Source of the DNA: an uncultured virus (IMG/VR IMGVR_UViG_3300005611_000010)
Taxonomy: Duplodnaviria; Heunggongvirae; Uroviricota; Caudoviricetes
IMG/VR virus record: IMGVR_UViG_3300005611_000010
DNA: 64,000 nt
Reading direction: 5' to 3' (one strand)
The position numbers were made by a program, and so were the translations under genes. Below the pieces are notes generated by a model. The model worked only from the letters and a program-made list of their open reading frames with translations. It searched no databases and was not told where the DNA came from. This document shows positions 13,039 to 44,421 of this stretch, piece by piece. Position 1 is the stretch's first letter. Each line of letters begins with the position of its first letter.

Positions 13039-13359
13039 TTATCGTGCTATTAAGACATCTTTGCCATCCAAAGTTCGTGCTACGAAACTACCGCTTTTGG
13101 TTCTGAATACTTTCATACCATATTCGTCAGCAAAGATTGAATTCAATTTACTTAATTCAGACGGTTTTTCACCCGCCTCTGTTGCATTTATGTAAGCATC
13201 GAGAATTGTCCGAGCATCGCCTTTACGCTTTACTTCGTCCTTTGAAGCCTTTTCGGGCTTGCCCAATCCATTTTTCTTGGGTTTCACCAATAGATAAATC
13301 ACCACCGTTATTCCAATGATGGCGATTGCATTTTTCCATTCCCGACTTACATTCATCAT
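13039..13359 (-). CDS. Small membrane protein (N-terminal TM)
   Basis: AIAIIGITVVIYLLVKPKK. Confidence 0.7.
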   Translation of the reverse strand: MMNVSREWKNAIAIIGITVVIYLLVKPKKNGLGKPEKASKDEVKRKGDARTILDAYINATEAGEKPSELSKLNSIFADEYGMKVFRTKSGSFVARTLDGKDVLIAR

Positions 13360-13760
13360 TTACGTTTCCGTAATAATACTACCGTTAAAACAATACCCGC
13401 TATGCCCACAAGGGAGCCAACGACTATCAAAGTTATTTCCCTGTTTTTTGCTTGATTTTGCGCGTTCTGTAGAATGCGTAGTTTTTCTGCTTTTGTGTTT
13501 GCTTTGCCTAACTCTTCAGCAAGTCTTTGTTGCTGTGCGCCTGACAACTTTGCAAGGTCTTTCTGAAGTTGTACCTGTTGATTTGTTGAATAAACACCTA
13601 CGGTAATATCCCCCGCCAACTTAATGGCTTGACCAATCAAGTCTGCGTTGCTTGCGGCACTACCTGCGCCTTTAGCCACATCAGCCGCCCCATCGATATG
13701 CAAAAAGTTTTCGTGCGCTGTTGCTTGATTTTTGGCGAAATACGATTTTATGTCGCTCAT
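13356..13760 (-). CDS. C-terminally anchored membrane protein with capsid-like N-terminal leader
   Basis: MSDIKSYFAKNQATAHENFLHIDG leader; C-terminal TM followed by RKRK. Confidence 0.75.
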   Translation of the reverse strand: MSDIKSYFAKNQATAHENFLHIDGAADVAKGAGSAASNADLIGQAIKLAGDITVGVYSTNQQVQLQKDLAKLSGAQQQRLAEELGKANTKAEKLRILQNAQNQAKNREITLIVVGSLVGIAGIVLTVVLLRKRK

Positions 13761-14149
13761 TTTTTCTTGTTTTTAGTTAAAATATAAATAAGTATAACCG
13801 CTACCAAAACCCCACCGATTCCAATAGCAATTCCTACATTTTCCTTTCTTTTGTCCAATTGGTCGCGCAATTCTACTTCTTGAAGTATCAAGGCAACTTG
13901 TGCTTGTTTGTTTTGAGCCTTTTGCGCTTTTTCAAGAAGTAATGCTCTTTCTTCTTCGTTTAATTTCCCAATCTTCCGCTCTAAATCTGCTTTGCGTTTT
14001 GCGTCAACGGCTTTATCGCCTGTTTCATACAAAGCCATACCAACCAAAACAACCGTAACGGGGTCAATCGCAAGAATGACATTGTCCCCTGCCCATCCAT
14101 AGAATAAAGCGTGACAAATGAAATCCCAAATTGCGATTATTACGTCCAT
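13757..14149 (-). CDS. C-terminally anchored membrane protein, paralog of 13356-13760
   Basis: KIGKLNEEERALLLEKAQKAQNK vs DLAKLSGAQQQRLAEELGKANTK; TM followed by KNKKK. Confidence 0.7.
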   Translation of the reverse strand: MDVIIAIWDFICHALFYGWAGDNVILAIDPVTVVLVGMALYETGDKAVDAKRKADLERKIGKLNEEERALLLEKAQKAQNKQAQVALILQEVELRDQLDKRKENVGIAIGIGGVLVAVILIYILTKNKKK

Positions 14150-14385
14150 TAGTTTTTTGAAAGTTGTGTTTTGGTGTCGGATTTGAATTCAATAAAAGCA
14201 TCTTTCATAAGACGCAATTCTGTTTCGATACGGGTACTGCTTAATTTTAAATCTTCGATGTCTTGGGTTTGTTTTTTGTTATCAAAATAAAACTGCGAGC
14301 AGAAAAAGGTACAAATGCCGAGTAATATTCGGTATGCCCATTTCTCGAAGAGCGCGTTCTGTTGTTCTTTTATAGTTTGTGTCAT
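14149..14385 (-). CDS. Small TM plus coiled-coil protein
   Basis: Start moved to ATG 14385; WAYRILLGICTFFCSQFYF followed by coiled coil. Confidence 0.6.
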   Translation of the reverse strand: MTQTIKEQQNALFEKWAYRILLGICTFFCSQFYFDNKKQTQDIEDLKLSSTRIETELRLMKDAFIEFKSDTKTQLSKN

Positions 14386-14386
14386 T

Positions 14387-14854
14387 TTACTTATAACCGT
14401 TTGATAAGCAGAAATTGCGGTATTTTCCGATGACTTCCTGTAAGACAGATTCAACGGATTGATTTGTCGTGTCGATTGCTTCAGGGTCACTTGGTTCTTC
14501 ATAATCCGCATATTCCTTTTTATTGCTAATTCTTTTTTCTTCGTCGTGCGTCAAATACACCCAAAGGATTCCTTTCTTTTCATTGAACAATACCCTTTGG
14601 TCTTCATAAGCAAAAGAAACGCTTACCAACACTACGTCATTTAGCGATTCTTCATATCGGGCAATTTCCATCGACTTGGCAATCAGGGCTCGTTCAGTTT
14701 CTTGACTGAAACCTTTCATACCATACACAAAACGCAACTTATCGCTGTCAAGGTAATGACAACGAACAGGAAGGTTTTGCTTTATCCATCCATAGAACTC
14801 ACGACATATAGTAGTTTTTCCTGAATTCCTTTTTCCATAAAAAACCACTATCAT
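14387..14854 (-). CDS. P-loop kinase, adenylylsulfate-kinase-like
   Basis: VVFYGKRNSGKTT, YLDSDKLR, GFSQE..R. Confidence 0.65.
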   Translation of the reverse strand: MIVVFYGKRNSGKTTICREFYGWIKQNLPVRCHYLDSDKLRFVYGMKGFSQETERALIAKSMEIARYEESLNDVVLVSVSFAYEDQRVLFNEKKGILWVYLTHDEEKRISNKKEYADYEEPSDPEAIDTTNQSVESVLQEVIGKYRNFCLSNGYK

Positions 14855-15108
14855 AAATCATTTCGTTTAACGAATTCTCCCGTGTCTGTGTCAATATCGC
14901 CTACACCATACTTTGTTTTGATGTCTTCAAAATATTGTTTATGCTCACCGTCAAACTCTTCCAAACCTTTAAAAATATTATCTTTTACTTTTTGGAGTCT
15001 AACAATTTCTTGTTCAATTCTACCGACTTCGCGAAGGCTTGAATTGTGTTTGTCGCTTATTTGTTTAGCGGTTCTCCATTCAGCATCAGTTAAATATATT
15101 TTGTCCAT
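14851..15108 (-). CDS. Small coiled-coil phage protein
   Basis: KYGVGDIDTDTGEF C-terminus; preceded by a promoter. Confidence 0.7.
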   Translation of the reverse strand: MDKIYLTDAEWRTAKQISDKHNSSLREVGRIEQEIVRLQKVKDNIFKGLEEFDGEHKQYFEDIKTKYGVGDIDTDTGEFVKRNDL

Positions 15109-15128
15109 ATCACATATTTTAATTTATT

Positions 15129-15159
15129 CAAAAATAATATTTTAATAGGGGTATTCAAA
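15129..15159 (-). promoter_or_regulatory. Bacteroidota promoter (TTTG-N19-TATTTTTG)
   Basis: Both elements upstream of ATG 15108. Confidence 0.55.
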
Positions 15160-15204
15160 GAATCTATATTTTACGAAATAACTTAATGGTAAATTAGTAG
15201 TCAA

Positions 15205-15873
15205 TTAAGTAAACGTAATACTTATATCACAGCCGCTACCGTCAGTATTTACAGTACCATAAGTTCCAAAATCCACAACCAATTGTCCACCAAATGAAGG
15301 TGAAGTTCCGTTAAATACATTTGTCCCATTTATTGTTACATCTGTAGTTCCACCACCTCCTTGTGGGTCAGAATCAATCGTAATCACATAATACAACACA
15401 GCGATTAAAGGTGTTGTACTTGCCGATTCAAAATTAATTGCTCCACTTGATTGTGCAGGAGCCCCTGTATTACCAAAAGCATATTGATAAGTCTGTGTGC
15501 TGTCGTATAATTCGACTGTTATGGTAAAATCATTGGCTGATGGTGGGGTAGGGAATACGGGTGTGTTTAGAGTATTGTTAAAATTTAACTTGGCTTGATA
15601 GGTACTGCCGTCATAAAAATAGTCCTTATTACCAAAATCATTAATAGCCTGTGGCGTGTTTTGCGCACTCAATCCAAAAATTCTATCGTCACCTGTAGTA
15701 TTGCCGTACCTACCCCAACCGTTGAAGGAGTAGGTACTGCTTCCATTTGAACCCTCGAAATAGGAAATGCGCGACAAATCTCCAAAAGAAATGTTATCAC
15801 CGCCACTTGGTGAAGGGTTGCCCGCTTCAGTCCAAATGTCGCTAATGCCGATGTCTGAACTTGGTGTAGTCAT
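15205..15873 (-). CDS. Fibre-associated structural protein
   Basis: MTTPSSDIGISDI...ISFGDL start typical of genes following S74 fibres; beta-rich. Confidence 0.6.
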   Translation of the reverse strand: MTTPSSDIGISDIWTEAGNPSPSGGDNISFGDLSRISYFEGSNGSSTYSFNGWGRYGNTTGDDRIFGLSAQNTPQAINDFGNKDYFYDGSTYQAKLNFNNTLNTPVFPTPPSANDFTITVELYDSTQTYQYAFGNTGAPAQSSGAINFESASTTPLIAVLYYVITIDSDPQGGGGTTDVTINGTNVFNGTSPSFGGQLVVDFGTYGTVNTDGSGCDISITFT

Positions 15874-15874
15874 A

Positions 15875-18800
15875 TTATTTTAGTTTATCAACTTTTTCAT
15901 TCAACTCTCGAATTGCTTCGATTAGTAACGCAACCAACTTTTCGTATTTCACGCCTTTAAATCCTGAATCACGCGTAGTAACGATTTCGGGTAGTATTGC
16001 TTCAATTTCTTGAGCAATAACACCCACGTCGTGACCTTCAAACCCGTGGTGGATTTTGTGTTCAGGTTTCCAATCGAATTCATATCCACCAATTGAAAGA
16101 ACCTTATCAAGTGCGTTTCCGATACGAACTACATTTTCCTTGTAACGCGCGTCTGAAGAACTGAATGCTACTACATCATTTGCCGCGTCGATACGACCTG
16201 TCGTACCCGAAGGTGTAATGTTTCCGACTGCAAGAGAAGTAGCAACCTTGACTTTCGATGTACTTACAGTAACCGTAGTGCCATCGTCGGTAATGTTTGA
16301 ATCTCCTAAAGAACTTCCACCACCCGTGAACTTCACTACTGTATTGTTTGTACCGCTGATTGATACAGACGTACCCGCGCTACCCGCAGTACCTGAAGTA
16401 CCTGCGCTACCTGCCGCACCTGACGCTCCACTTGAACCACTTGAGCCCGCTGTTTCAAAGAACACCAAGAATTCATCGTTGTTGTTCCAAGTTCCTGCTT
16501 GAGCAATCACGTTACCTTGGTATTCCGCGTAGCCTGACCTTGGTATACCGTTCGCATCCAATTGATAGTAAGCGTAAGTGCTTGGGTCTGTTTTCTTAAC
16601 AAACTTCACCCAAGTAAACACAAGAGCCACATCAAGAATCTGTCCAAGATTAACAGCGGGGCTATGCGCTACATCATCAATTACAAAGACTGATGGTGAA
16701 GAACCTATTGCCGCATTGAATCTGAAGAAACCTGCTGTTGGGTCAGTCATCGATGTGCTCGTACTGTATTTCCAAATAGCAAGGTGTCCTTCGTAACCTG
16801 AAGTACCTGCTGTTCCTGAAGTACCTGCCGCACCTGCCGCACCATTAGCACCGCTTGTTCCTGAAGAACCTGCCGCACCTGTTTGTCCACTTGAACCGCT
16901 TGTTCCTGAAGAACCTGCCGCACCTGCCGCACCTGTTTGTCCGCTTGAACCACTTGAGCCGCTTGAACCACTTGAGCCGCTTGAGCCATTTGCACCATTA
17001 GCACCGCTTGTTCCTGAAGAACCTGCCGCACCTGTTTGTCCACTTGAACCACTTGAGCCCGCGCTTCCGCTTGAGCCTGATGACCCGCGCGTACCTGAAG
17101 TACCTGCGCTTCCGCTTGAGCCTGATGACCCTGAAGAACCTGCCGCACCTGTAGCACCATTAGCACCACTTGTTCCTGAAGAACCCGAAGAGCCTGTGCT
17201 TCCTGAAGAACCTGAAGAACCTCTTGTACCTGAAGTACCTGCGCTTCCGCTTGAGCCTGATGACCCTGAAGAACCTGCCGCACCTGTAGCACCGTTTACA
17301 CCGCTCGTACCTGAAGACCCTGAAGAACCTGTGCTTCCGCTTGAGCCCGAAGAACCATTAGCACCGTTAGCACCACTTGTTCCTGACGTACCTGCGCTTC
17401 CGCTTGAGCCCGCAGAGCCACTTGAGCCGCTTGAGCCATTTGCACCATTAGCACCGCTTGTTCCTGAAGAACCGCTTGAGCCTGTGCTTCCGCTTGAGCC
17501 CGATGACCCGCGCGTACCTGACGTACCTGCGCTTCCGCTTGAGCCCGCAGAGCCACTTGAGCCACTTGAACCGTTTGCACCTGAAGTTCCTGAAGAACCT
17601 GAAGTTGCTGAACTTCCACTTGAGCCCGCGCTTCCTGAAGAACCACTTGAGCCACTTGAGCCGTTTGCACCCGAAGTTCCTGAAGAACCCGAAGAGCCTG
17701 TGCTTCCTGAAGAACCTGAAGAACCTCTTGTTCCTGAAGTACCTGCGCTACCGCTTGAGCCGCTTGAGCCTGAAGAACCACTTGAGCCATTTGCTCCTGA
17801 AGTTCCTGAAGTTCCTGCGCTTCCACTTGAACCTGAAGAACCTGAAGAACCGCTTGAGCCATTTGCTCCGCTTGTGCCTGAAGTACCTGCACTACCGCTT
17901 GAGCCTGCGCTTCCTGAAGAACCTGCCGAGCCTGAAGTACCTGAAGACCCGCTTGAGCCTGTGCTTCCGCTTGAGCCTGATGACCCGCGCGTACCTGATG
18001 TACCCGCAGAACCACTTGACCCTGCACTTCCGCTTGAACCGCTTGAGCCATTTGCACCACTTGTTCCTGAAGAACCCGATGTAGCAGATGACCCGCTTGA
18101 GCCTGCGCTTCCTGAAGAACCGCTTGAACCGCTTGAGCCGTTCGCTCCTGAAGTTCCTGAAGAGCCTGATGTAGCAGATGAACCACTTGAGCCCGCGCTT
18201 CCTGAAGACCCTGAAGAACCGCTTGAGCCGTTTGCTCCGCTTGTTCCTGATGTACCTGCTGAACCCGAAGAACCTGCACTTCCTGAAGAACCTGCACTAC
18301 CTGAAGTTGCGCTTGACCCTGAAGAACCGCTTGTTCCTGTGCTTCCGCTTGAGCCCGTGCTTCCGCTTGAGCCTGATGACCCGCGCGTACCTGAAGTACC
18401 TGCGCTACCGCTTGAGCCTGCGCTTCCGCTTGAGCCGCTTGACCCGTTTGCACCACTCGTGCCTGAAGTACCTGCACTTCCACTTGAGCCTGCGCTTCCA
18501 CTTGAACCTGCACTACCTGAAGTAGCACTTGAACCCGAAGACCCGCTTGTACCTGTAGAACCTGAAGAACCTGTACTTCCTGAAGAACCTGAAGAACCTC
18601 TTGTTCCTGAAGTTCCTGCACTTCCGCTTGAGCCACTTGAACCCGAAGAACCACTTGAGCCATTTGCTCCTGAAGTTCCTGATGTTCCTGCCGAGCCTGA
18701 AGAGCCTGCACTACCTGACGAACCTGCGCTACCTGATGTTGCGCTTGAACCTGAAGAACCTGAAGTACCTGTGCTTCCGCTTGAGCCCGTGCTTCCGCTT

Positions 18801-21800
18801 GAGCCTGATGACCCGCGCGTACCTGACGTACCCGCGCTACCTGACGTGCCTGCGCTACCGCTTGAACCTGCGCTTCCACTTGTCGCTGAAGAGCCTGAAG
18901 AACCACTCGTTCCCGTGGAGCCCGAAGAACCCGTACTTCCGCTTGAGCCTGCGCTTCCACTTGTACCTGAAGTACCTGCGCTTCCGCTTGAACCCGAACT
19001 ACCGCTTGAACCTGAAGAACCATTTGCTCCTGAAGTGCCTGAAGAACCCGATGTAGCAGATGAGCCACTTGAGCCCGCGCTTCCTGAAGAACCACTTGAT
19101 GCCGATGTTCCTGAAGTTCCCGCAGAGCCTGAAGAGCCTGCACTACCTGAAGTTCCTGAAGAGCCATCTGCACCTGCTGTGCCTGATGTTCCCGCAGAAC
19201 CCGAAGAACCTGCACTTCCTGAAGAACCTGCGCTACCGCTTGTAGCAGAAGAACCTGAAGACCCTGAAGTTCCTGTAGAGCCACTTGAGCCGCTTGTTCC
19301 TGTGCTTCCTGAAGACCCTGAAGTTCCTGTGCTTCCTGATGTACCCGCAGAGCCTGAAGAGCCTGCGCTACCGCTTGTAGCACTTGAACCACTTGAGCCG
19401 CTTGTTGCTGAAGAACCTGATGAGCCTGATGTTCCTGTAGAACCACTTGTTCCTGCACTTCCACTTGAGCCTGCACTTCCACTTGTACCACTTGAACCGT
19501 CTGCACCTGCTGTGCCTGATGTACCTGCCGTACCCGCAGAACCACTTGTTCCCGCAGAGCCACTTGACCCTGCTGAACCCGATGTTGCAGAACTACCTGA
19601 AGAGCCTGAAGTTGCTGAAGAGCCTGAAGAGCCACTTGTTCCTGTAGAACCCGAAGTTCCTGCGCTTCCGCTTGAGCCTGCGCTTCCTGATGTTCCTGAA
19701 GAACCGTCAGCACCTGCTGTTCCCGAAGTTCCCGCGCTACCTGAAGTTCCTGCTGAACCGCTTGAACCTGCGCTACCGCTTGTAGCAGAAGAGCCACTTG
19801 AACCTGACGTAGCAGAAGAGCCACTCGAACCTGACGTTCCCGTAGAACCGCTTGAGCCTGATGTACCCGTAGAACCGCTTGTACCTGCACTTCCACTTGA
19901 GCCTGCTGAACCACTTGTCCCTGAAGAACCGTCTGCTCCCGCTGTGCCCGAAGTTCCTGCTGAACCGCTCGTTCCTGCGCTACCTGAAGAACCCGCAGAG
20001 CCTGAAGTAGCCGAACTGCCTGAAGAGCCACTTGTACCTGTACTTCCACTTGAACCTGAAGTTCCCGTAGAGCCTGAAGTACCTGCACTACCTGAAGAAC
20101 CTGCGCTTCCTGATGTTCCTGAAGAACCGTCTTCGCCTGCCGTACCTGAAGTACCTGCTGAACCTGAAGAACCTGCGCTTCCGCTTGAACCCGCGCTTCC
20201 TGAAGTTGCAGAAGAACCACTTGAACCACTTGTACCCGTACTTCCGCTTGAGCCTGATGTGCCCGTAGAGCCTGAAGTACCTGCTGAACCTGAAGAACCT
20301 GCGCTTCCTGATGTTCCTGAAGAACCATCTATACCTGCTGTACCTGAAGTACCTGCTGAACCACTCGTTCCCGCACTACCACTTGAACCTGCACTTCCAC
20401 TCGTTGCAGAAGAACCTGAACTGCCTGATGTGCCCGTAGAACCGCTTGACCCTGACGTTCCTGTAGAACCTGATGTGCCTGCTGAACCACTTGAGCCCGC
20501 ACTACCTGAAGTTGCAGAAGAACCTGAACTACCTGATGTGCCCGTGCTTCCACTTGAGCCCGCGCTTCCTGAAGTACCACTCGATGCCGATGTACCTGAA
20601 GTACCCGCAGAGCCTGAAGAGCCTGCGCTACCCGAAGTACCTGAAGAGCCATCTGCTCCTGCTGTGCCCGAAGTTCCCGCACTACCTGAAGTACCTGCTG
20701 ACCCGCTTGAGCCTGCACTACCACTTGTTGCTGATGAGCCACTTGAACCCGAAGTCGCTGAAGAGCCACTTGAGCCCGATGTTCCCGTCGAACCACTTGA
20801 GCCTGATGTACCCGTAGAGCCGCTTGTTCCTGCACTTCCACTTGAGCCCGATGAACCACTTGTTCCTGATGAACCGTCTGCTCCCGCTGTGCCCGAAGTG
20901 CCCGCTGAACCGCTTGTTCCTGCACTTCCTGAAGAGCCTGATGAGCCTGAAGTTGCAGAACTGCCTGAAGAACCACTTGTACCCGTGCTTCCACTTGAAC
21001 CTGAAGTTCCTGTAGAGCCCGATGTGCCTGCGCTACCTGAAGAGCCTGCGCTTCCTGATGTTCCTGAAGAACCGTCTGCGCCTGCTGTTCCTGATGTACC
21101 TGCACTACCTGATGTACCTGCGCTTCCGCTCGAACCCGCGCTTCCTGATGTAGCAGAAGAGCCACTTGAACCGCTTGTACCTGTGCTTCCACTTGAACCT
21201 GAAGTTCCTGTTGAGCCTGAAGTTCCTGCGCTTCCTGAAGAGCCTGCGCTACCGCTTGTTCCTGAAGAGCCGTCAGCACCCGCTGTACCTGATGTACCTG
21301 CCGAACCGCTTGTTCCTGCACTACCTGAAGAGCCTGCGCTTCCGCTTGTAGCAGAAGAACCGCTTGAACCTGATGTAGCAGAAGAGCCACTTGAACCACT
21401 TGTACCCGTAGAACCTGAAGTTCCTGTGCTTCCTGAAGAGCCTGCGCTTCCTGATGTTCCTGATGAACCATCCGCACCTGCTGTTCCTGATGTACCCGCA
21501 CTTCCTGATGTACCTGCTGACCCGCTTGAGCCTGCGCTTCCACTTGTTGCAGAAGAACCTGAAGAGCCCGAAGTTCCTGTTGAACCACTTGAACCCGATG
21601 TCCCCGTAGAGCCGCTTGAGCCTGAAGTTCCTGTAGAGCCTGAAGTTCCTGCGCTTCCGCTTGAACCTGCGCTACCGCTTGTTCCTGAAGAGCCGTCAGC
21701 ACCTGCTGTACCCGAAGTACCTGCTGAACCACTCGTTCCTGCACTTCCCGCACTTCCTGAAGAACCTGAAGAACCTGAAGAACCTGAAGTAGCACTTGAG

Positions 21801-24800
21801 CCTGAAGAACCCGATGTTCCCGTAGAACCACTTGAGCCTGAAGTACCCGTTGAACCACTTGTACCCGCAGAGCCTGAAGAACCTGAACTACCTGATGTAC
21901 CGCTTGAGCCGTCCGCTCCTGATGTTCCTGATGTACCCGCACTTCCGCTCGTACCCGCAGAACCTGAAGAGCCGCTTGAACCCGAAGTAGCAGAACTACC
22001 CGAAGAACCTGAAGTACCTGTGCTTCCACTTGACCCTGAAGTTCCTGTTGAACCTGAAGTTCCTGCGCTTCCGCTTGAACCTGCTGACCCGCTTGTTCCT
22101 GAAGAACCGTCTATACCCGCTGTACCTGAAGTACCCGCTGAACCGCTCGTTCCTGCACTACCGCTTGAACCTGCGCTTCCGCTTGTTGCAGAAGACCCTG
22201 AAGAGCCTGAAGTTCCTGTTGAACCACTTGAGCCCGACGTTCCTGTCGAGCCGCTTGTTCCTGCCGACCCTGAAGAGCCTGCTGAACCACTTGTGCCACT
22301 TGAACCATCTATACCTGCCGTTCCTGATGTGCCTGCCGAACCACTTGTTCCTGCGCTTCCTGAAGAACCCGCAGAACCTGAAGTAGCAGAAGAGCCACTC
22401 GAACCACTTGTGCCTGTAGAGCCTGAAGAACCGCTTGTAGCAGAAGACCCCGAAGAGCCACTTGTTCCTGTTGAGCCACTTGTTCCTGCACTACCACTTG
22501 AACCTGCCGAACCGCTCGTTCCTGAAGAACCATCCGCACCTGAAGTACCTGCTGTTCCTGCACTACCTGAAGTTGCAGAAGAGCCGCTTGAGCCGCTTGT
22601 ACCTGTAGAGCCTGAAGAACCCGAAGTTGCTGAAGAACCACTTGAGCCCGACGTACCTGTCGAGCCACTTGTTCCTGCGCTTCCCGAAGAACCTGAAGAA
22701 CCTGAAGTTCCACTTGTTCCGTCTTCACCACTTGTTCCTGCTGTTCCCGCAGAGCCACTTGAACCTGCCGAGCCTGATGTGCCGCTTGAGCCATCCGCTC
22801 CACTTGTTCCACTTGAGCCCGATGTTCCTGCACTACCGCTTGAACCTGCTGAACCTGAAGTTGCAGAAGAGCCGCTTGAGCCGCTCGTTCCTGTGCTTCC
22901 TGATGAACCTGATGTTCCTGTGCTTCCTGAAGTTCCCGCAGAACCACTTGAACCTGCACTTCCTGAAGTCCCACTTGAGCCATCCGCTCCACTTGAGCCC
23001 GAAGTTCCCGTTGAACCTGAAGAGCCTGATGTTGCGCTTGAACCCGAACTACCTGAAGTTGCAGAAGAGCCGCTTGAGCCGCTTGTTCCTGTGCTTCCAC
23101 TTGAACCCGAAGTTCCTGTTGAACCCGAAGAACCGCTTGTTGCTGATGTTCCTGCCGTGCCCGCAGAACCACTCGTACCTGCTGACCCCGAAGAACCTGA
23201 TGTACCTGATGAGCCATCTACACCCGCAGTTCCTGAAGAACCGCTTGTTGCAGAAGACCCTGAACTGCCTGATGTACCCGATGAGCCGTCCGCTCCACTC
23301 GTTCCTGAAGTACCTGCACTACCTGCACTACCACTTGAACCTGAAGAACCTGCCGACCCTGATGTAGCCGATGAGCCTGAAGAGCCGCTTGTGCCCGTAG
23401 ACCCTGATGTTCCTGTTGAACCTGAAGTACCCGCGCTTCCGCTTGAACCGCTTGAACCTGAAGTTCCTGAAGAACCATCTATACCTGATGAACCTGCTGT
23501 TCCTGCTGAACCTGAAGTAGCAGAAGAACCTGAAGACCCTGAAGTGCCTGATGAACCGTCTGCTCCTGAAGAGCCGCTTGTACCCGTAGAACCACTTGAG
23601 CCACTTGTAGCAGAAGAACCTGAAGAACCTGATGTACCCGAAGAGCCATCTGCACCACTTGTGCCTGCTGTTCCCGCTGAACCTGCTGTTCCTGCTGAAC
23701 CTGAAGTAGCAGAAGAACCTGAAGACCCACTCGTTCCCGTAGAACCACTTGAGCCCGACGTTCCCGTCGAGCCGCTTGTACCTGCGCTTCCTGAAGAACC
23801 CGAAGAACCCGATGTTCCGCTTGTTCCATCCTCACCACTTGTTCCTGCTGTACCTGCACTTCCTGATGAACCTGCGCTACCGCTTGTACCTGAACTACCA
23901 TCTGCTCCACTTGAGCCCGATGTTCCTGTGCTTCCTGATGAACCTGAAGTTGCTGAAGTTCCTGCTGTTCCTGAAGTACCGTCTACACCTGAACTACCTG
24001 AAGTAGCAGAAGAGCCTGAAGACCCTGAAGTTCCCGTACTACCTGAAGAGCCTGAAGTTCCTGACGAACCATCCGCGCCTGAAGTACCACTTGATGCCGA
24101 TGTTCCTGAAGTACCCGCAGAACCTGATGAACCACTTGTACCTGAAGTACCATCTACACCTGCCGTGCCTGATGTTCCTGCTGAACCTGAAGTTGCAGAA
24201 GACCCGCTTGAGCCTGATGTTCCCGAAGAGCCATCCGCTCCTGATGTACCTGCTGTTCCTGCACTACCTGAAGTAGCAGAAGAGCCCGAAGACCCGCTTG
24301 TTCCTGTAGAACCACTTGAACCCGACGTTCCTGTCGAGCCGCTTGTTCCGCTTGAGCCTGATTCCCCTGCTGTTCCTGAAGAACCCGAAGAACCCGAAGA
24401 GCCACTTGTTCCACTTGAACCATCTGCTCCACTTGTTCCTGATGTTCCCGCACTACCTGAAGTTGCTGAAGAACCACTTGAACCCGATGTACCCGAAGAG
24501 CCATCCGCTCCCGATGTTCCTGCTGTTCCCGCAGAACCACTTGAACCCGAAGTAGCCGAAGTTCCTGCTGTACCCGAAGTACCGTCTACACCCGAACTAC
24601 CTGAAGTAGCAGAAGAGCCACTTGAGCCGCTCGTTCCTGTAGACCCTGATGAGCCCGAAGTTCCTGATGAGCCATCTGCTCCGCTTGTACCACTTGATGC
24701 CGATGTTCCTGCTGTTCCCGCAGAGCCACTTGAGCCTGATGAACCCGAAGTTCCTGATGAACCATCTGCTCCCGAAGTACCACTTGAACCTGCGCTACCA

Positions 24801-33018: not shown

Positions 33019-33782
33019 TAATAGTATTGCTTTTCCTGTGGTGTTATTTCCACCTTCAGTTTTCCAATATCCCGTCGTTCCGCGTGAATAAGGAAATAGC
33101 AATCAATACTGTGTAAGTCACCTTCGTTTTTGGCTACCCTAATATGTTCCAAGTTCACATCTTCTACGAAATACTGAAAATTGCCTTTAGCACTTGTTAA
33201 ATGCACCGTAATGCTTCCCAAGTGAACCAAAAACTTCCAATAGGTCGGTAAATAAATAATATTTGTCCCTTGAAGGCGACCCCGCACATAAATTGCGTGT
33301 TCCCCACCTTCCAAGTTTCCGTGTTGTAAATCCCATCCCTGTTTAGCAGGGTCGGGGTGTGGAATCAAAAATGACTTTGCTTCCGCTGTCAATGTTCCTG
33401 CAATGTCTACATCGCCAAGAAAAAAAGTATTGTCGGCAAAGGTCTTGACTCCTGCAATCTTTTGAGCCCCTGTAGAAACCACACCTCTCGCACTTGTTCC
33501 CGCATCGGGTAAATTAAACGTATGTGTGTTTCCTGAAGACTGAATAGCAAAATTGCTACCTGAAGTACCCGTCACCAATAATTGATTAGGGTTGGTCAAA
33601 GAATTTATTGTTTGGATACCGCTTGTACCACCGCTTCCTGTGTAGTTGGTAACAGGCTCCACTATTCCGTCAACATCTTTGACCTTTAACGCGCCATCTG
33701 TTTGGTCAACGAAAACCACCAATGGGTTCCCTTCTACGGTTTTAATATTCCGTGCCAAACTTTGTGTTACCTTGGTTGCCAT
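33018..33782 (-). CDS. Short fibre/spike protein
   Basis: Shared N-terminal domain; HTFNLPDA, QKIAGVKTF; C-terminal KSFLIPHP...LEGGEHAIYVRG domain typical of phage fibres. Confidence 0.7.
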   Translation of the reverse strand: MATKVTQSLARNIKTVEGNPLVVFVDQTDGALKVKDVDGIVEPVTNYTGSGGTSGIQTINSLTNPNQLLVTGTSGSNFAIQSSGNTHTFNLPDAGTSARGVVSTGAQKIAGVKTFADNTFFLGDVDIAGTLTAEAKSFLIPHPDPAKQGWDLQHGNLEGGEHAIYVRGRLQGTNIIYLPTYWKFLVHLGSITVHLTSAKGNFQYFVEDVNLEHIRVAKNEGDLHSIDCYFLIHAERRDIGKLKVEITPQEKQYY

Positions 33783-35571: not shown

Positions 35572-35837
35572 TATTTATTATAAATAAGTCTTTGAGCAAC
35601 GTAAATTCCTGAAACCAATAAAAAGAAATAAATAAAAGAATTGGGCACACCTTTTACTACATAAGGTTTATTGTCCAATCGTTTTGCTCTTTGCTGTGCT
35701 TCAGTAACTTGTAAATTAAATTCAGGACTAAAAGTGGATTTAAATTTTTGTCCGAAATTAAGGGCTTTAGTCTGTGCGCCTTCAAAGGTTTCTCTATCTA
35801 TGCCCGTGTCTTGAAAGAAGTCTTCAAAGTTTTCCAT
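35571..35837 (-). CDS. Small C-terminally anchored membrane protein
   Basis: C-terminal hydrophobic helix. Confidence 0.65.
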   Translation of the reverse strand: MENFEDFFQDTGIDRETFEGAQTKALNFGQKFKSTFSPEFNLQVTEAQQRAKRLDNKPYVVKGVPNSFIYFFLLVSGIYVAQRLIYNK

Positions 35838-36766
35838 TATCTTCTACGAATTAAAACAACCAATAAAATAGCCGCTACAGCAATTCCACCATACAACAAC
35901 AAGTTTGGCTTTGCAGGTTCGGGTAATTGACCACGAGCCGCGGCTTCTTCGCCTTGAATTTGGTCTATTTGAGCCTGAATCGCTTTACGCTGTTCTTCGT
36001 TTGCCGCTTCACCTAATTGGTTTACCAATTGGTCTACTTTAGATTTACGGGCTTCAGAATCCTTTACAAATTGAATCTTTGCATTCAATGCGGTCTTCTG
36101 TGCTTCGGTAGTTGCAAACCCCAAGGCTTCCTGAAGTTTATTAATATCTTCTGTAGCCAAAGCATCATTTACTTTTCTTTGCTTATCCAAACGACTTTCT
36201 GCTTCGCTTACATACGCATCGCGTAGAACTTTAAAAGCCGCGTGACGCATCAATGATTCACGAATAGCACCAATTTTAGCAAACGCTCCGTCGTCAAGTT
36301 TTGAATCGCGCGCTTTAGTATTGATTTGAGCATCTACACGCTCACGGGCTTTAGCCGCGGTTGTATTCCAATCGTCTTCAATATCTATAGCCTCTTGACG
36401 CAGTTTTTTGGCTTTGCCTAATTCATCAGCCGATTTAGATTCAGCCGTTTTAGAAAGTTCGCGAATAGCATCTTCGTTTATATCGGCATCTAAAACACGA
36501 CTGTCCCAATACACACCTGAATTACGGTCTGATTTAAGACGTTGCGCTAACGAAATGATGTCGGCTTCTTTTCCTTGAAGATAAGTGTTGAATGTACCGT
36601 TGCCTGTACGAGTAGCGTCTGAAGGAACTGCAAAGGCTCCGTCAAATCCTAAAAAGTCATTATTTCCGCTTTTCTTATTCAATCCTAATTGATAATCCAA
36701 TGGCGGTGCGGGCATAGAAGGTGGCAACACACCTAAACCCAATTGCTTGCTAACTGTCTTTTGCAT
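35837..36766 (-). CDS. Coiled-coil protein with C-terminal TM anchor
   Basis: NDFLGFDG motif; LLYGGIAVAAILLVVLIRRR. Confidence 0.75.
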   Translation of the reverse strand: MQKTVSKQLGLGVLPPSMPAPPLDYQLGLNKKSGNNDFLGFDGAFAVPSDATRTGNGTFNTYLQGKEADIISLAQRLKSDRNSGVYWDSRVLDADINEDAIRELSKTAESKSADELGKAKKLRQEAIDIEDDWNTTAAKARERVDAQINTKARDSKLDDGAFAKIGAIRESLMRHAAFKVLRDAYVSEAESRLDKQRKVNDALATEDINKLQEALGFATTEAQKTALNAKIQFVKDSEARKSKVDQLVNQLGEAANEEQRKAIQAQIDQIQGEEAAARGQLPEPAKPNLLLYGGIAVAAILLVVLIRRR

Positions 36767-36770
36767 TTTA

Positions 36771-37457
36771 TTATTTTTTTATAGCCCTATACAAAACAAC
36801 TCCCAAACCAAGAGCGGCTACAGCAATACCTCCATATAAAATATAATTGGATGTTTTGCTTCCTGCGCCTGCTTCTTCAAGTTGTGCTAAAAATTGTGCA
36901 TCGTCCTGAACGTCACATTGTGCGTTCTTCATTAATTTGACTACTTCATCTTTTGCCGTACCTAAACCCCTATTATAGCCCTCCATAACACGCGCCTCTC
37001 TTTTAGAAGTAAGTGCCTTTCGATTGTTGTCAACTATTTCATTCTTGATTGCTGTTAATGTAGCATCAAGAACTTTACAGTCTTTAAGTTGAGCCTCTGA
37101 AAGTTTGTCAAGATATTTACGAATACCGTGTCCTTCACGGTCTTGTTTACGCAAATCGTTAAACTTATCGCCACCGTATGCGTTCAAATACTGTGGACTG
37201 TAAATGGTTTCACTATTTCCCACTCCCTCACCTGCTACATTATTAAAGTCATCATTTAGACTAATTCCTTCGCCTTGGTCGACGAACTGTGCATATTGTG
37301 GGTCATTTTTAAAACCGTATAATTCCTTTGGAGCAAATTTATATTCTCCGCGATGCTTCCAAGCGTTCTGTCCTGTTCCAACAAAGTTTTTAAAACCTCC
37401 GTTGCCGTCCATTCCAAAACTCAAATCGCCATTTGTGAAAAAACTATCTATGTCCAT
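36771..37457 (-). CDS. Protein with C-terminal TM anchor
   Basis: ILYGGIAVAALGLGVVLYRAIKK, nearly identical to the neighbour's anchor; start moved to ATG 37457. Confidence 0.75.
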   Translation of the reverse strand: MDIDSFFTNGDLSFGMDGNGGFKNFVGTGQNAWKHRGEYKFAPKELYGFKNDPQYAQFVDQGEGISLNDDFNNVAGEGVGNSETIYSPQYLNAYGGDKFNDLRKQDREGHGIRKYLDKLSEAQLKDCKVLDATLTAIKNEIVDNNRKALTSKREARVMEGYNRGLGTAKDEVVKLMKNAQCDVQDDAQFLAQLEEAGAGSKTSNYILYGGIAVAALGLGVVLYRAIKK

Positions 37458-40114: not shown

Positions 40115-40380
40115 TTTTTGTAATTCTTATATACCAAGTATCCTAACAAGACTATCAATCCAACTCGAAGGACTTTTGAAGTCATTTGTGCTTTGTCTAC
40201 ATCAGCCTTTTTAATTTCCGTTGTTTCGGCAGGGGCTTCTTCAGTACCATCGGCATTGTAAAATTCTTCCATCGCTTCTACGTTTGGAATAAACTTGCCT
40301 TTGGCTTTTTCACGTTCGAGCCAATCCTTGAATGCAAGGGTAGAGCCTGATTGTTTGTATAGTTTGTTAGCGGATAACAT
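40111..40380 (-). CDS. Small C-terminally anchored membrane protein
   Basis: EFYNADG motif; VGLIVLLGYLVYKNYKK. Confidence 0.7.
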   Translation of the reverse strand: MLSANKLYKQSGSTLAFKDWLEREKAKGKFIPNVEAMEEFYNADGTEEAPAETTEIKKADVDKAQMTSKVLRVGLIVLLGYLVYKNYKK

Positions 40381-40381: not shown

Positions 40382-40978
40382 TTAATTGAATTCGTATTTA
40401 GGTTTGGAATCTACAAAACCAAGGAATTTAGGGTCAACAGCCGATTTAACTCCTGCTCCACCTCCATAAACACCACCGCCTCCGTAAACTACCCCACCTG
40501 TGGGATTACCTACGGGTACGGGTGAGCCTGAAGGTATGAAAACTCCTGCTCCTGACCCTGCACTAACGGGAGTACCGCTTGAAGGTCTTGTTGGTCGTGT
40601 AGGGCTTGTTGGGGTTCTTGAACCTGCTCCAACGGAAACACCACCTGTTGTACCACCTGATACAACACCACCGCCTGATGGAATACCTGTTCCTACGGGG
40701 TCTTTAACATCACCTCTTGTTGGCGTGGTTGAAGTTTCTCCTTTGACTACGTTCGCTCCTGTGCCGCTTGTGGATGTACCGCTACCTTCATCTTTGGATT
40801 CTGTGCCTTCGGGTACTTCTACACCTGTTGGAAAGAAGCCACCGCCTCCACCACCAACTCCACCGCCACCGCCTGCGCCACCGCCTGCTTCCTCGGTTGG
40901 GATTGATTTTTTCTTTTTGAAAAACAAGAAATACAGCGCAACGGCTACACCTCCTGCGATTAGGTAGTTCTTATTCAT
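40382..40978 (-). CDS. Membrane-anchored Gly/Pro/Thr-rich protein
   Basis: YLIAGGVAVALYFLFFKKKK followed by low-complexity region. Confidence 0.7.
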   Translation of the reverse strand: MNKNYLIAGGVAVALYFLFFKKKKSIPTEEAGGGAGGGGGVGGGGGGFFPTGVEVPEGTESKDEGSGTSTSGTGANVVKGETSTTPTRGDVKDPVGTGIPSGGGVVSGGTTGGVSVGAGSRTPTSPTRPTRPSSGTPVSAGSGAGVFIPSGSPVPVGNPTGGVVYGGGGVYGGGAGVKSAVDPKFLGFVDSKPKYEFN

Positions 40979-40981: not shown

Positions 40982-41068
40982 CTATTTCTCTGCGGGTTTT
41001 CGGAAGACGAAGTATAACACTCCTGCTACCACTCCCAAAGTTAATATTGTTTTAGTAATTGGTTTCAT
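40982..41068 (-). CDS. 28-aa membrane peptide (absent from ORF track)
   Basis: MKPITKTILTLGVVAGVLYFVFRKPAEK fills the gap between neighbours exactly. Confidence 0.7.
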   Translation of the reverse strand: MKPITKTILTLGVVAGVLYFVFRKPAEK

Positions 41069-41070
41069 TT

Positions 41071-41292
41071 TTACTTCAATTTAAGTCCTTTTAATCCGTC
41101 TGCATTTTTATACAAATGGTCGTCATACACCATATCGTCCTCTGTCCAATTTTCAAATCCACCGTTAGCACCTGTTCCTACAGGCTTTTTAACTTTGGCT
41201 GTGCTTAAAACTTTGTCCGTTTTGGTTAAATAAATTGCTAAAGCGACTGCTCCAAGCAGGATAGCGGCTTCAATATATTCTTTTTTTATCAT
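41071..41292 (-). CDS. Small membrane protein
   Basis: N-terminal TM; YKNADG motif. Confidence 0.7.
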   Translation of the reverse strand: MIKKEYIEAAILLGAVALAIYLTKTDKVLSTAKVKKPVGTGANGGFENWTEDDMVYDDHLYKNADGLKGLKLK

Positions 41293-41293
41293 C

Positions 41294-41599
41294 TTATTTT
41301 TTAGTTAAAATGTTGAAAACTATGTAACCTGCAAGAAGTAATCCACCTGCAAAAAGTACACCTCCGAACTTTTGGTCATCGGTGATTTTTTCCTCTGCTT
41401 TAATTTCGGTTTTGGAATTAGGGGGTGGCAAAACACCTCCACCTCTTTGTACATTTACTGCATCATCGGGCGGTGGTGGGACATCTTCTTGTACGATAAT
41501 ACCACCTTCAGCGTTTAAAAAAACCAAACGCTTTGGTCTTGCTCGAACTATGTCAGGCTTTTGATAATTTTTTTGCACTATTGCTGAATCTATAGTCAT
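41294..41599 (-). CDS. Small C-terminally anchored membrane protein
   Basis: VFLNAEGG; C-terminal TM followed by KK. Confidence 0.7.
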   Translation of the reverse strand: MTIDSAIVQKNYQKPDIVRARPKRLVFLNAEGGIIVQEDVPPPPDDAVNVQRGGGVLPPPNSKTEIKAEEKITDDQKFGGVLFAGGLLLAGYIVFNILTKK

Positions 41600-41600
41600 A

Positions 41601-41981: not shown

Positions 41982-41982
41982 T

Positions 41983-42210
41983 TTAATCGTTGCTAAATAC
42001 GAAATAATTAACTGCTCCACCTCCGATTGCTCCAAGGGTTGCAGTTACCCAAACATTTTTTTTCGACCACCAACCGTAAAGTAATCCTACGACTGCTCCT
42101 GCGGCACTACCCTTTACAAGACGCTTGCTTTTATCCACGAAGGTGTCGTGAGTGGATTGTCCATTCAGTTCCTTTACGTTGTCCAAAGCATCTTGAAATT
42201 CGTTTGCCAT
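41983..42210 (-). CDS. Small two-TM glycine-zipper protein
   Basis: GSAAGAVVGLLYG...LGAIGGGAV. Confidence 0.7.
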   Translation of the reverse strand: MANEFQDALDNVKELNGQSTHDTFVDKSKRLVKGSAAGAVVGLLYGWWSKKNVWVTATLGAIGGGAVNYFVFSND

Positions 42211-42420
42211 TTAAGCCTCCATTTCTTTTTCTACTGCTGATACATTTTTTCGGTTGGCGATTACGCCACTTGCCCAACCACCGACTACAGCCCCAAGGAA
42301 ACCAATGCCGACAATACGACCAACGTCTGATTTACCAAACGCGTAGAAACCATAAGTGGCGGCTACTAAACCCCCAATTATTGCTCCATTTCTGAACGAT
42401 ATTCCGACTTTCTTTTCCAT
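42211..42420 (-). CDS. Small two-TM glycine-zipper protein
   Basis: Start moved to ATG 42420; GAIIGGLVAA...GFLGAVVGG. Confidence 0.7.
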   Translation of the reverse strand: MEKKVGISFRNGAIIGGLVAATYGFYAFGKSDVGRIVGIGFLGAVVGGWASGVIANRKNVSAVEKEMEA

Positions 42421-42605
42421 TATTTTGCTGTAAAGTTGTAATAAGCCATACCTGCCAAACCACCTACCATTCCACCAAGCAAGTAATAACCTGCTCCCTT
42501 CCAAAATCCTGATTTGACTTGAAAAGCGTAAACGATTCCAACGATACCTCCTACTTGGCTTATTGCAATTGCTCTTCCAAGTCTTTGTTTATCAGTAGTT
42601 TCCAT
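42420..42605 (-). CDS. Small two-TM glycine-zipper protein
   Basis: VGGIVGIVYAF..KSGFWKGAGYYLLGGMVGG. Confidence 0.75.
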   Translation of the reverse strand: METTDKQRLGRAIAISQVGGIVGIVYAFQVKSGFWKGAGYYLLGGMVGGLAGMAYYNFTAK

Positions 42606-42606
42606 A

Positions 42607-43272
42607 TTACTTCTTTTTAGTTGCGAAATAAACGATTGCGCCTAATGCTCCTAAAACACCTACTACAATAAGAACTATTGTTCCTGTTCCCATTCCACCT
42701 GAAGCGGGGGGTGGGGTGTTTGGGTTGTTTGGAATATCAGCACGACCTTGGTTGATATTATTGGTAGTATCCGCGGTGGTTCCCTCACGACTTGCCCATA
42801 CATTCAAACCTGTGTTTATAACACGTTTAACTGTATCGGGGTCAAGATAGTCTGACCAACTAACACCGTTTTTATTTTTGTCGTCTTTGCTTTTTGCAGG
42901 GTCGTCTGTACTTCCTGCTTGAGCACCTGCACTTGCGCCAATAAAAATGTCGTCAAGACTTGTTCCCTTACCTTGGGACACAAATCCATTGTACACCTTA
43001 TTCAAAGATGTTCCATTGCCTTGCTGAACGAAATTCAGGAAACCAAGGAAGTTATTGTTATTGCTGATTGATTCTTGAGCCAAAGCGGCAAAGTCCCTAC
43101 GGAAAGTTTTGCTTGTTTTCAATAAAGCGGCAAAGGCTTTATCTATGTCCGCTTTGCTTGCATTAGCAGGAAGTACGACACCGTACTTGCGGATAAGCGT
43201 TTTAGTACCTTCGGGGTTGTTGTCGATGGTATATGCACTTACAGCATATATGTCTTTCTGATTTATATTCAT
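42607..43272 (-). CDS. Virion membrane protein with C-terminal anchor
   Basis: NNPEGTKTLIRKYG resembles NNPVGAKRTIESFG of the neighbour; internal FVxQGxGTSL duplication; TM followed by KKK. Confidence 0.75.
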   Translation of the reverse strand: MNINQKDIYAVSAYTIDNNPEGTKTLIRKYGVVLPANASKADIDKAFAALLKTSKTFRRDFAALAQESISNNNNFLGFLNFVQQGNGTSLNKVYNGFVSQGKGTSLDDIFIGASAGAQAGSTDDPAKSKDDKNKNGVSWSDYLDPDTVKRVINTGLNVWASREGTTADTTNNINQGRADIPNNPNTPPPASGGMGTGTIVLIVVGVLGALGAIVYFATKKK

Positions 43273-43649
43273 TATTTTTTCAAAATTAATCCTGCTACTA
43301 CAAGAAGCGAAACAGCCACAATTAATGTATTGGTTTGATGAGCCAATTTCGCTGTGCTGTCATTTTGCTGTTGGTTGTTACTTAAAACTGCACTCTGAAG
43401 GATTCCGTCTGCTCCAAGGAAGTTTTCTTTGTCCTTGCATCCACAATCGTTACCATAGACTTCAAGAATTAAATCTTTGTCGGGGTGCAAATCGACTACG
43501 GCTTTTAAGGCGGGCTCTCCCTCCTGTGCTACCAACATACGAAGATTATCGCCCATTGATTTTGGATTGACCACTTTGTAGCCAAAAGATTCAATTGTCC
43601 GTTTTGCACCTACGGGATTGTTGCGTGCGATGTATTCGTAGATTGTCAT
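43272..43649 (-). CDS. Virion membrane protein with C-terminal anchor
   Basis: LHPDKDLIL, CGC, ENFLGADG; TM followed by KK. Confidence 0.75.
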   Translation of the reverse strand: MTIYEYIARNNPVGAKRTIESFGYKVVNPKSMGDNLRMLVAQEGEPALKAVVDLHPDKDLILEVYGNDCGCKDKENFLGADGILQSAVLSNNQQQNDSTAKLAHQTNTLIVAVSLLVVAGLILKK

Positions 43650-43668
43650 TTATTTTTTTTTGTTAAAG

Positions 43669-43700
43669 AAAAAAGGGGCGGAGCATAGTTGCCCGCCCCT
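43669..43700 (-). terminator. Rho-independent terminator after the putative capsid gene
   Basis: AGGGGCGG...CCGCCCCT followed by a T-tract on the minus strand. Confidence 0.85.
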
Positions 43701-43725
43701 CTATTTTTGCATCGTTAAATGCCGA

Positions 43726-44421
43726 TTAACCTTGAATTTTCACGGTTTGAGCGCGTACAATTCCTGGGCTTGAGAAGTCCTTGGAAACTGCGCGTCCACT
43801 CAATCCACGAGCCAAGTTGATGTTATCAGCAGGATACATATACAACTTCACAGTAGTGGAAGCCAAAATCTGATTGATAATGATTTTGGTGTAACCATCG
43901 ATGCGATAGCCGTAACGCATTGCCAACACAGTAGTCTGTTGCTGATAAGGGTCAACGGTTGGTACTAAAGGCTTTTGTGCCAAGTTACCGTTAGCGTCTT
44001 TAGTTTGAACACTTAAAGTTTCAAGCAACTGCGTAGAAGAAGCAGACTGAATGTAAGTCAAACCAACGCTGAAAGGGTTGTTCATAAACTGATACAACAT
44101 CTGTTGGTAAGTTACGTTAGGAACTGCACTTGATACAGTTACGTTACCAACGGTCAAAGTACCGTTTGCAAAACCTGCGTTGTTGATGAATTCATAAGAA
44201 CCCAACACGTCAAAGTTTGCTACAGCACCACCTGTGTTCGCAACCTGAATGATATAAGGCTGTGAAGTTGGAGCCGCGGCAGGCATCTGTGCGCCATTAG
44301 CACCCATAAAGTCTTCACCTGCGGTGAAAGACAAATCGTCGTCGAAGAAACCATCGGCTCCTACGAATCCTTCGTGCGCATTATTCTGTGCGTCAGAAAG
44401 ATATTTGCGGATATTACTCAT
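43726..44421 (-). CDS. Putative major capsid protein (single jelly-roll candidate)
   Basis: Soluble beta-rich 231 aa; downstream of packaging ATPase; own promoter/terminator unit; paralog at 12589; fold not verified. Confidence 0.6.
   Translation of the reverse strand: MSNIRKYLSDAQNNAHEGFVGADGFFDDDLSFTAGEDFMGANGAQMPAAAPTSQPYIIQVANTGGAVANFDVLGSYEFINNAGFANGTLTVGNVTVSSAVPNVTYQQMLYQFMNNPFSVGLTYIQSASSTQLLETLSVQTKDANGNLAQKPLVPTVDPYQQQTTVLAMRYGYRIDGYTKIIINQILASTTVKLYMYPADNINLARGLSGRAVSKDFSSPGIVRAQTVKIQG

Follow-up and report, generated by a model that had tools for sequence, protein, structure and literature searches.

A hexapeptide shared by the capsid candidate and membrane proteins of an uncultured virus is probably read by a putative zinc protease

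Two genes lying far apart in the 64,000-nt stretch that we analyzed from the uncultured virus IMGVR_UViG_3300005611_000010 (the window), one encoding a major capsid candidate (43726; genes are named by their first coordinate, Table 1) and the other a small membrane protein (13356), begin with a related N-terminal leader, and the hexapeptide that closes this leader recurs in a minus-strand block of small membrane proteins within what is a large virus-like genome. A first-pass annotation had proposed a maturation-cleavage site or a capsid-docking peptide, and the locus raises the question of what the hexapeptide is and what reads it. Our analysis indicates that the motif is real and conserved, and that it is probably read, as judged from sequence comparison, by a zinc protease in a new variant of consensus-site virion maturation.

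The shared leader itself was borne out. Over their first 24 residues the two proteins have 11 identities in exact register, and the BLOSUM62 score of 52 is the highest of the 2,775 N-terminal pairs formed by the 75 called genes (next 33; mean −8.9, standard deviation 8.8); the pair is also the top non-self match among 18,782 windows, and the leader helix alone (residues 2–17) again ranks first (36 vs. 25). Similarity stops there, as had been claimed: BLAST beyond residue 24 gave E = 30, and a profile-profile comparison aligned these 25 columns only (E 9e-6). The description of 13356 as a distant membrane protein is correct as to its distance from the capsid gene, but the gene is not a stray, since it lies in a second conserved structural cluster, two genes from a capsid paralogue (12589) and beside its own tandem paralogue (13757). 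Its product consists of the leader, a variable Ala/Gly linker, an amphipathic helix, a coiled segment and a C-terminal transmembrane segment. All 18 database homologues of 13356 retain the leader and, behind it, an Ala/Gly linker whose length varies, and the site in this family (19 rows) reads FLHANG in six, FLHISG in four and FLHSNG in three, the rest being similar. None of nine relatives whose cluster includes a gene that matches the 13356 body and lacks the helical domain has a capsid-type leader (five begin at the body, three with a Gly/Ser/Ala/Thr-rich stretch only, and one with the bare motif), and no 13356 orthologue retaining the leader was found in the viral contigs searched. Given its absence from these nine, the leader looks like a recent graft, and because the capsid leader is far more widespread, the direction would be from capsid to 13356; most simply, the 13356 leader appears to be a lineage-specific, recent copy of the start of the capsid gene.

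All ten peptides on which the motif had been based were found in their open reading frames (ORFs), every one on the minus strand; the pattern proposed for them, F-x-[GN]-[AF]-[DE]-G, fits five of the ten and misses FLHIDG of 13356, and [FYW]-x-[NGS]-[AFV]-[DNST]-G is a better form. Enrichment over shuffled proteins was confirmed, with five occurrences of the proposed pattern in the window vs. 0.10 expected and six of [FY].[NG]A[DEN]G vs. 0.22, neither count being reached in any of 300 per-protein shuffles. Both patterns were derived from this same window, and the independent tests are those in relatives. Across 36 dereplicated loci, non-capsid proteins with transmembrane segments hold 71 wide-pattern sites in 16 families (4.5 after shuffling), and proteins without such segments hold 15 (4.7 after shuffling), several of these being missed transmembrane calls. 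With a strict pattern, the actual proteins of these loci, after dereplication at 60%, gave 31 sites in 136,102 anchored residues vs. one in 133,284 soluble residues (∼30-fold; Fisher p 1.6e-8, computed over residues that are not independent). A de novo scan of 716 transmembrane proteins with four fixed letters placed aromatic-x-N-A-x-G second, and first once low-complexity patterns are set aside, in 15 families vs. 1.8 expected; with three fixed letters the motif was not recovered.

These counts bear on whether the motif is a compositional artefact, such turns being common in Gly/Asn-rich linkers and needing no shared partner. Around the sites, G, S, N, D, T, Q, and P are indeed somewhat more frequent (0.485 vs. 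0.437 elsewhere), and loose patterns lie somewhat above shuffle in soluble proteins (40 vs. 27). However, per-protein shuffles that keep composition leave the strict pattern at 31 vs. 1.0 in anchored and 1 vs. 1.0 in soluble proteins, the top de novo rank argues the same way, and the position of the motif is kept within otherwise variable linkers. We regard an artefact as very improbable and as already largely refuted.

The claim that the motif marks virion components needs narrowing. It is enriched on the membrane-anchored type of protein but carried by a minority, with 83 of 1,043 dereplicated membrane-anchored proteins matching the wide pattern and 143 the general one. Its conservation in related genomes is similarly mixed: 33 of 36 members of the 43272 family keep it, as an island of conservation inside the variable linker between domain and anchor, but retention is uneven across families (10/34 for 40111, 3/8 for 41071 and 2/6 for 41294). 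On the capsid candidate the site is far more constant. Residues A22, D23, G24, and F25 are invariant in 104 of 104 close capsid rows aligned, 103 of which match the wide pattern; among 107 mostly distant rows, 54 leaders match [FYW].[NGS]A.G and 80 a looser form. Capsid leaders hold 116 sites in 5,802 residues and capsid cores 15 in 19,532, with the motif kept in leaders down to ∼30% identity, and in the distant loci L084 and L086 both the capsid gene and the membrane genes that come next carry it.

The capsid role of 43726 is itself predicted from a structure model. The protein, with homologues in 1,113 clusters (589 representatives at 50% identity), is modeled as an N-terminal helix (residues 2–16), an acidic arm of low model confidence (17–53), a single jelly roll (∼50–200) and a C-terminal arm, and such arms are net negative in 84 of 101 capsid homologues. 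The model is a beta-sandwich with a predicted local distance difference test (pLDDT) mostly of 83–93 over residues 61–150, and its structural matches include grapevine fanleaf virus (Z 6.5), EhV-201 (5.9), FLiP (5.7), and phiCjT23 (5.5); these viral jelly rolls (Z 5.5–6.5) are intermixed with non-viral matches, and every match has Z < 8. A Foldseek search of a viral library gave nine rows at E up to 0.001, with a TM-score < 0.3 in all, and sequence searches of the PDB with the capsid candidate and the protease gave chance-level matches only.

The candidate reader of the motif, 39123, belongs to a family of 1,701 homologue clusters. Its residues H188, E189, H192, E202, and A205 are invariant in 111 of 111 rows and D206 is kept in at least 90%, and the M48 signature reads as HExxH plus a downstream Glu in E-x-x-A-D. 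The model (pLDDT 91) has no transmembrane segment, and the best folds for its helical domain (∼109–257) are BepA (Z 8.3, root-mean-square deviation 4.3, 121 residues aligned), Q74D82 (6.8), and ZMPSTE24 (6.2), values that sit near the level common for helical folds. The likeness to M48 enzymes such as BepA, ZMPSTE24/Ste24, and Q74D82 is thus one of HExxH, downstream Glu, and best fold match, whereas 39123 differs in scoring below the Pfam cut-off, in its lack of a transmembrane segment, in its extra N-terminal beta-sandwich and in its place within a viral structural block. The 39123 query had no M48 match, and PF01435 was not reached at its curated cut-off; M48 models matched 22 of the 111 members at E up to 0.5 (best 0.001), and SprT-like, M56, and phage metallopeptidase models matched 16–21 of them. 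The gene follows the capsid gene by 1.6–5.9 kb. Of the loci anchored on the capsid or ATPase gene, 43 (without dereplication) extend at least 8.2 kb downstream, and all 43 carry it, as do two distant loci, L079 and L087. We infer that this HExxH...E protein is a zinc protease acting on the motif, a prediction from sequence and model.

A second line of evidence comes from gene fusion. The helical domain of the 42607 family is fused to a membrane body in 71 proteins, 37 of which match a stricter pattern at a distance of no more than 70 residues; in 13 loci the domain forms a gene of its own. At one gene position followed through 28 loci, the motif comes after the domain in seven of seven fused forms but is on the body in none of 13 split forms, and a quick tree of 25 of the 28 loci places the split forms in four places, interleaved with fused ones. 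The pattern fits a cut site, because splitting the gene makes the cut unnecessary.

Third, a complex was predicted for the protease, zinc, and capsid residues 1–52, as had been suggested for the peptide and protease. It lent weak support, with a score of 0.58 against 0.00 for the best of three controls, runs agreeing in at least 54% of contacts and partner pLDDT of at least 46. The mark that it passed is reached by 116 of 157 solved complexes and two of 215 mismatches; of those that pass, only 18 of the solved complexes, but both mismatches, do so at 0.60 or less.

Of the two readings first proposed, a maturation site and a docking peptide, which were left equally open and with no enzyme named, what both share, a common signal on virion-type proteins, is upheld, and the choice between them is only tilted: the linked protease, the fused/split pattern, and the weakly passing complex together tilt it to cleavage, perhaps after binding. 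The missing capsid-type leader in the nine relatives of 13356 leans the same way. On sequence and modeling we consider it fairly likely that the hexapeptide is recognized and cut, with or without prior binding, by the zinc protease that the virus itself encodes. A number of observations weigh against this. At the gene position described above, four of eight bodies from which the helical domain is gone keep the motif within their first ten residues, the fused/split comparison amounts to some four independent contrasts, and the pattern used in it was made wider once the fused forms had been viewed. The complex pass is weak and comes without contacts, the tool handles enzyme-substrate pairs poorly, and zinc lies outside its calibration. 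Members of the 41071 family consist of anchor, linker, motif, and six to eight further residues, so a cut would free almost nothing; a fibre-like protein (L065) opens with FLGADG; and several families gain or lose the motif freely (10/34 and 2/6). The protease lacks a motif site of its own in 36 of 36 copies, unlike gp245 of phage SPN3US, and neither the capsid nor the protease model had a Foldseek match in the PDB at E ≤ 0.001. Finally, no protease-less relative was found among loci long enough, which makes the co-occurrence of motif and protease untestable by loss; distant capsid queries for such relatives returned none, none, three loci, and two loci, and an ATPase scan with the same aim gave 80 of 93 loci, mostly from the same clades.

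Some of these observations would be expected if the motif only docks, plugging a pocket on the inner face of the capsid or on the helical domains and so tethering shell to membrane, with nothing cut and the protease engaged in another job. The retention of the motif at the N-terminus of four of eight domain-less bodies suits such a tether, as do anchor-linker-motif proteins without any other domain (the 41071 family and families 73 and 74), some of which copy the acidic arm. So do an acidic variant on N-anchored proteins in arrays (25 sites vs. 2.0 shuffled, six families), tandem motif repeats (L038) suited to multivalent binding, and the presence of the motif on N-anchored (13 sites) as well as C-anchored (57 sites) proteins. 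On the other hand, the loss of the motif from all 13 split genes should mean a lost tether, the monomer model leaves the arm undocked on its own jelly roll (pLDDT < 50 over residues 16–23 and 27–53), and the linked protease would be left without a substrate. We think docking alone unlikely, if by no means far-fetched. Cleavage and docking could also be combined, by analogy with vaccinia A17/D13.

The composition of the sites raises one more candidate, since 79% of the non-capsid sites have N at position 3 and 50% have S or T at position 5, and N-x-S/T is the N-glycosylation sequon. The motif might then be read by another enzyme, either a host protease or a modifier such as a glycosyltransferase, and glycosyltransferase-like genes lie at 28067 and 30187, with family matches at 28067. 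Against this, position 5 of capsid site 1 is Asp in 104 of 104 close rows, Gly or Ser often replaces Asn and breaks the sequon, and conservation is stronger at the flanking aromatic residue and Gly than at N or S/T, so that we hold another enzyme to be improbable.

Under the preferred reading of cleavage by the viral protease, the capsid protein and membrane-anchored precursors would assemble on a patch of host membrane, and the capsid arms and small N-terminal domains would sit between shell and membrane, as PRD1-type architecture suggests, serving as a temporary scaffold or address, possibly by binding. The protease would then cut at the motif. The acidic capsid arm, with its two or more sites, would come off piecemeal, and domains of ∼35–70 residues would be freed from their membrane anchors. 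In this lineage 13356 would have gained a copy of the capsid's first 24 codons, that is, helix and site, and cutting it would restore the short N-terminus seen in its relatives. Such proteases favor a hydrophobic residue after the cut, and for this reason we guess, with low confidence, that the bond cut lies between motif positions 3 and 4. That the cut would free basic peptides following acidic ones is not supported: averaged over 12 residues, the charge on C-anchored proteins is +0.2 ahead of the site and −0.2 behind it, and on N-anchored ones −1.4 and −0.4.

Known maturation systems offer partial parallels. In vaccinia virus, the N-terminus of A17 engages the jelly-roll lattice of D13 and is then cut at an AG/X site common to core proteins, and a second protease with a zinc motif, G1, also acts in maturation (PMC4213562). 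The likeness lies in a membrane-protein N-terminus with a short motif common to several virion proteins. The enzymes differ, I7 being a cysteine protease and G1 having HXXEH and no known core substrate, whereas the candidate here is an HExxH, M48-like zincin; in addition, here a single jelly-roll shell candidate itself bears the motif, and the virus is apparently prokaryotic.

In adenovirus, the piece released from the C-terminus of pVI is 11 residues long. The consensus of the adenovirus protease AVP is (M/I/L)XGX-G or (M/I/L)XGG-X and occurs in several unrelated virion precursors; the pVI C-terminal piece is released, and pVI also binds the hexon cavity (PMC3386624). One short consensus in several unrelated virion-type precursors is likewise seen here (16 membrane families plus the capsid candidate), and in both a hydrophobic residue is followed by small residues. 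AVP differs in being a cysteine protease, in acting without a membrane and in that hexon is not among its listed substrates, and the present motif opens with an aromatic residue and sits mostly on membrane-anchored proteins. No cysteine maturation protease family was matched among the 25 window proteins scanned in Pfam.

The prohead proteases of T4 (gp21) and SPN3US (gp245) cut after Glu. In SPN3US, N-terminal propeptides are cut at several sites, two of them being just 20 and 24 residues long, and gp245 processes itself; in T4, propeptides have the further role of directing proteins to the prohead (PMC10052503). A single protease with a short consensus and multiply cut propeptides resemble the repeated sites on capsid arms here; these are, however, HK97-type tailed phages, the present motif has no conserved Glu, and none of 36 proteases carries it. 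By analogy, the system would work like AVP, I7, and gp245 and yet is not a member of their groups, as enzyme class and motif differ.

In architecture the closest likeness is to PRD1, STIV, FLiP, phiCjT23, and Halopanivirales, to which the present virus is linked by its jelly-roll capsid candidate, an upstream P-loop ATPase with a weak B204 match, and many small membrane proteins, with the difference that contigs of the present group reach 70–100 kb. Halopanivirales have two major capsid proteins, each a single jelly roll. A neighboring pair of full-length major capsid genes was not found here, where one full gene is accompanied by a distant, shortened paralogue. The available parts of three articles on such viruses mention no maturation protease for PRD1-type phages (PMC5894146, PMC13552765, PMC3185693).

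The virus itself is probably a tailless, membrane-containing one with a single jelly-roll capsid, and appears to be prokaryotic, presumably bacterial. A check of the window for tailed-phage genes matched no portal or major-head family among the 68 references scanned in PHROGs; tail-fibre matches were confined to Gly/Ser/Thr-repeat proteins, and the one weak terminase match fell on the ATPase 44771 (E 0.014). The ATPase gene adjoins the capsid gene in nearly all loci, and its likeness to the STIV packaging NTPase B204 (E 0.048 and 0.44) ranks below matches to ClpB that rest on Walker A only. The many small transmembrane proteins in the loci are suggestive of an internal lipid membrane. Pfam and PHROGs put no name on the capsid candidate or the protease at E 0.05, and no sequence match for the group was found among 50,697 deposited phage records. 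The ESM Atlas returned unnamed clusters, in which most of the few members with a label are assigned to Uroviricota; this speaks against a tailless virus, although the labels are automatic. Three 4–7 kb contigs of the group (L081, L082, and L083) sit in two unrelated metagenome-assembled genomes labelled Bathyarchaeia and Planktophila, a placement that is probably mis-binning and no evidence of host.

Consensus-site maturation is familiar in tailed phages, adenoviruses, and poxviruses, and the open-access literature gave us no report of it for prokaryotic viruses that are tailless and contain a membrane; nor were this virus group and motif found in the open-access literature searched, where supplementary tables could list the group. 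If cleavage is correct, this maturation strategy would extend to a tailless membrane-containing lineage with a different enzyme class. Taken further, by sequence, model, and analogy, it is possible, and we offer this tentatively, that bacterial viruses of a very large, so far undescribed group, tailless and lined by a membrane beneath a single jelly-roll shell, mature in the manner of pox- and adenoviruses through an M48-derived zinc protease, with a portable cassette of helix and cut site that addresses proteins to the shell, can be grafted by copying 24 codons and is then removed, the cut freeing helical scaffold domains in a step that some lineages would have replaced by splitting the gene. 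The system could be tested without a cultured virus, the putative protease being a soluble protein of 261 residues and its proposed substrate a hexapeptide; should the motif instead be a docking peptide, it would show how a jelly-roll shell ties to its membrane.

Table 1. Coordinates of the capsid candidate, putative protease, motif-bearing proteins, and associated features in the window.
Feature	Coordinates	Strand	Remarks
Capsid-protein paralogue	12589..13038	-	aligns to capsid residues ∼93–208 (E 2.6e-7); no leader, no motif
Tail-anchored membrane protein, 134 aa	13356..13760	-	capsid-like leader 13689–13760, site FLHIDG
Tandem paralogue of 13356	13757..14149	-	E 1.5e-6; different leader with FYGWAG (14087–14104)
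Tail-anchored coiled protein, FLGFDG (36638–36655)	35837..36766	-	position has pattern match in 6/9 close relatives
Tail-anchored protein, FKNFVG (37377–37394), FNNVAG (37230–37247), YLNAYG (37173–37190)	36771..37457	-	loose match in 5/12
Putative zinc protease, 261 aa	39123..39908	-	beta-sandwich 1–93 plus M48-like zincin domain; H188, E189, H192, E202
Small conserved domain, FYNADG (40246–40263), C-terminal transmembrane segment	40111..40380	-	10/34 family members
N-anchored Gly/Pro/Thr-rich protein, loose site FLGFVD (40409–40426) near C-terminus	40382..40978	-	pattern match kept in 1/4 matches
N-anchored 73-aa protein, YKNADG (41095–41112)	41071..41292	-	transmembrane segment, linker, acidic capsid-arm-like stretch, site, 7 residues
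Tail-anchored protein, FLNAEG (41504–41521)	41294..41599	-	2/6 family members
∼70-aa helical domain, linker, C-terminal transmembrane segment	42607..43272	-	degenerate site FLGFLNFVQQG; clear site in many relatives
Conserved N-terminal domain, variable linker with FLGADG (43404–43421), C-terminal transmembrane segment	43272..43649	-	motif in 33/36 family members
Major capsid candidate, 231 aa	43726..44421	-	structure model and homologue clusters
Capsid site 2, FMGANG, residues 38–43	44293..44310	-	immediately before jelly roll
Capsid leader, residues 1–24 (helix and site 1)	44350..44421	-	site 1 FVGADG at 44350–44367
P-loop ATPase	44771..45589	-	directly upstream of capsid candidate; weak likeness to STIV B204 packaging NTPase

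Among the motif-bearing proteins, the three sites of 36771 all fall in its first 95 residues, and the closest relative of 35837 reads MLSFDG at its site. The L038 protein (L038:6427-7194) carries the motif, with an acidic spacer, in four 16-residue copies arranged in tandem straight after the helical domain. The L065 protein (L065:12712-13461) is a Gly/Ser/Thr-repeat, fibre-like protein that opens with FLGADGF, like capsid site 1, and its two relatives open with FLGTDYF and FLGGDSF. In 13757, FYGWAG precedes IDPVT, and the relatives in L021 and L023 begin at M-IDPVT.

The capsid paralogue 12589 lacks the first jelly-roll strands, and no wide-pattern site occurs among ten paralogue representatives. 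The adjoining gene (12206-12589) opens with a stretch resembling the missing strands, an assignment that we rejected as the match is insignificant (E 0.13); in L027 a 290-aa gene at the paralogue position may fuse genes of the 12206 and 12589 types. Other capsid arrangements include two near-identical full capsid genes in tandem with leaders on both (L053:5667-7093), a second capsid-like gene upstream of the ATPase with an unrelated, motif-less N-terminus (L014:6784-7437), and a distant 333-aa homologue, 30% identical to its query (L087:2679-3680), whose arm comprises ∼70 residues of near-tandem DDDGY repeats and then a basic stretch, with the order ATPase-capsid-protease kept.

Elsewhere in the window, positions 15875–28048 encode a 4,057-aa Gly/Ser/Thr/Ala-repeat protein with fibre-like ends, and a 3,472-aa ORF on the opposite strand (17196–27614) is probably a by-product of the repeats. 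The region 58799–63389 holds a MoxR/AAA_5-like ATPase (60358), a DUF7192-like gene (58799), and a gene for a long Gly-Glu repeat protein (61737). Glycosyltransferase- and methyltransferase-like genes lie at 28067–33102, a RecT-like gene at 11294–12082, and a PAP2 phosphatase gene at 47378–48025, which in relatives is also kept upstream of the ATPase.

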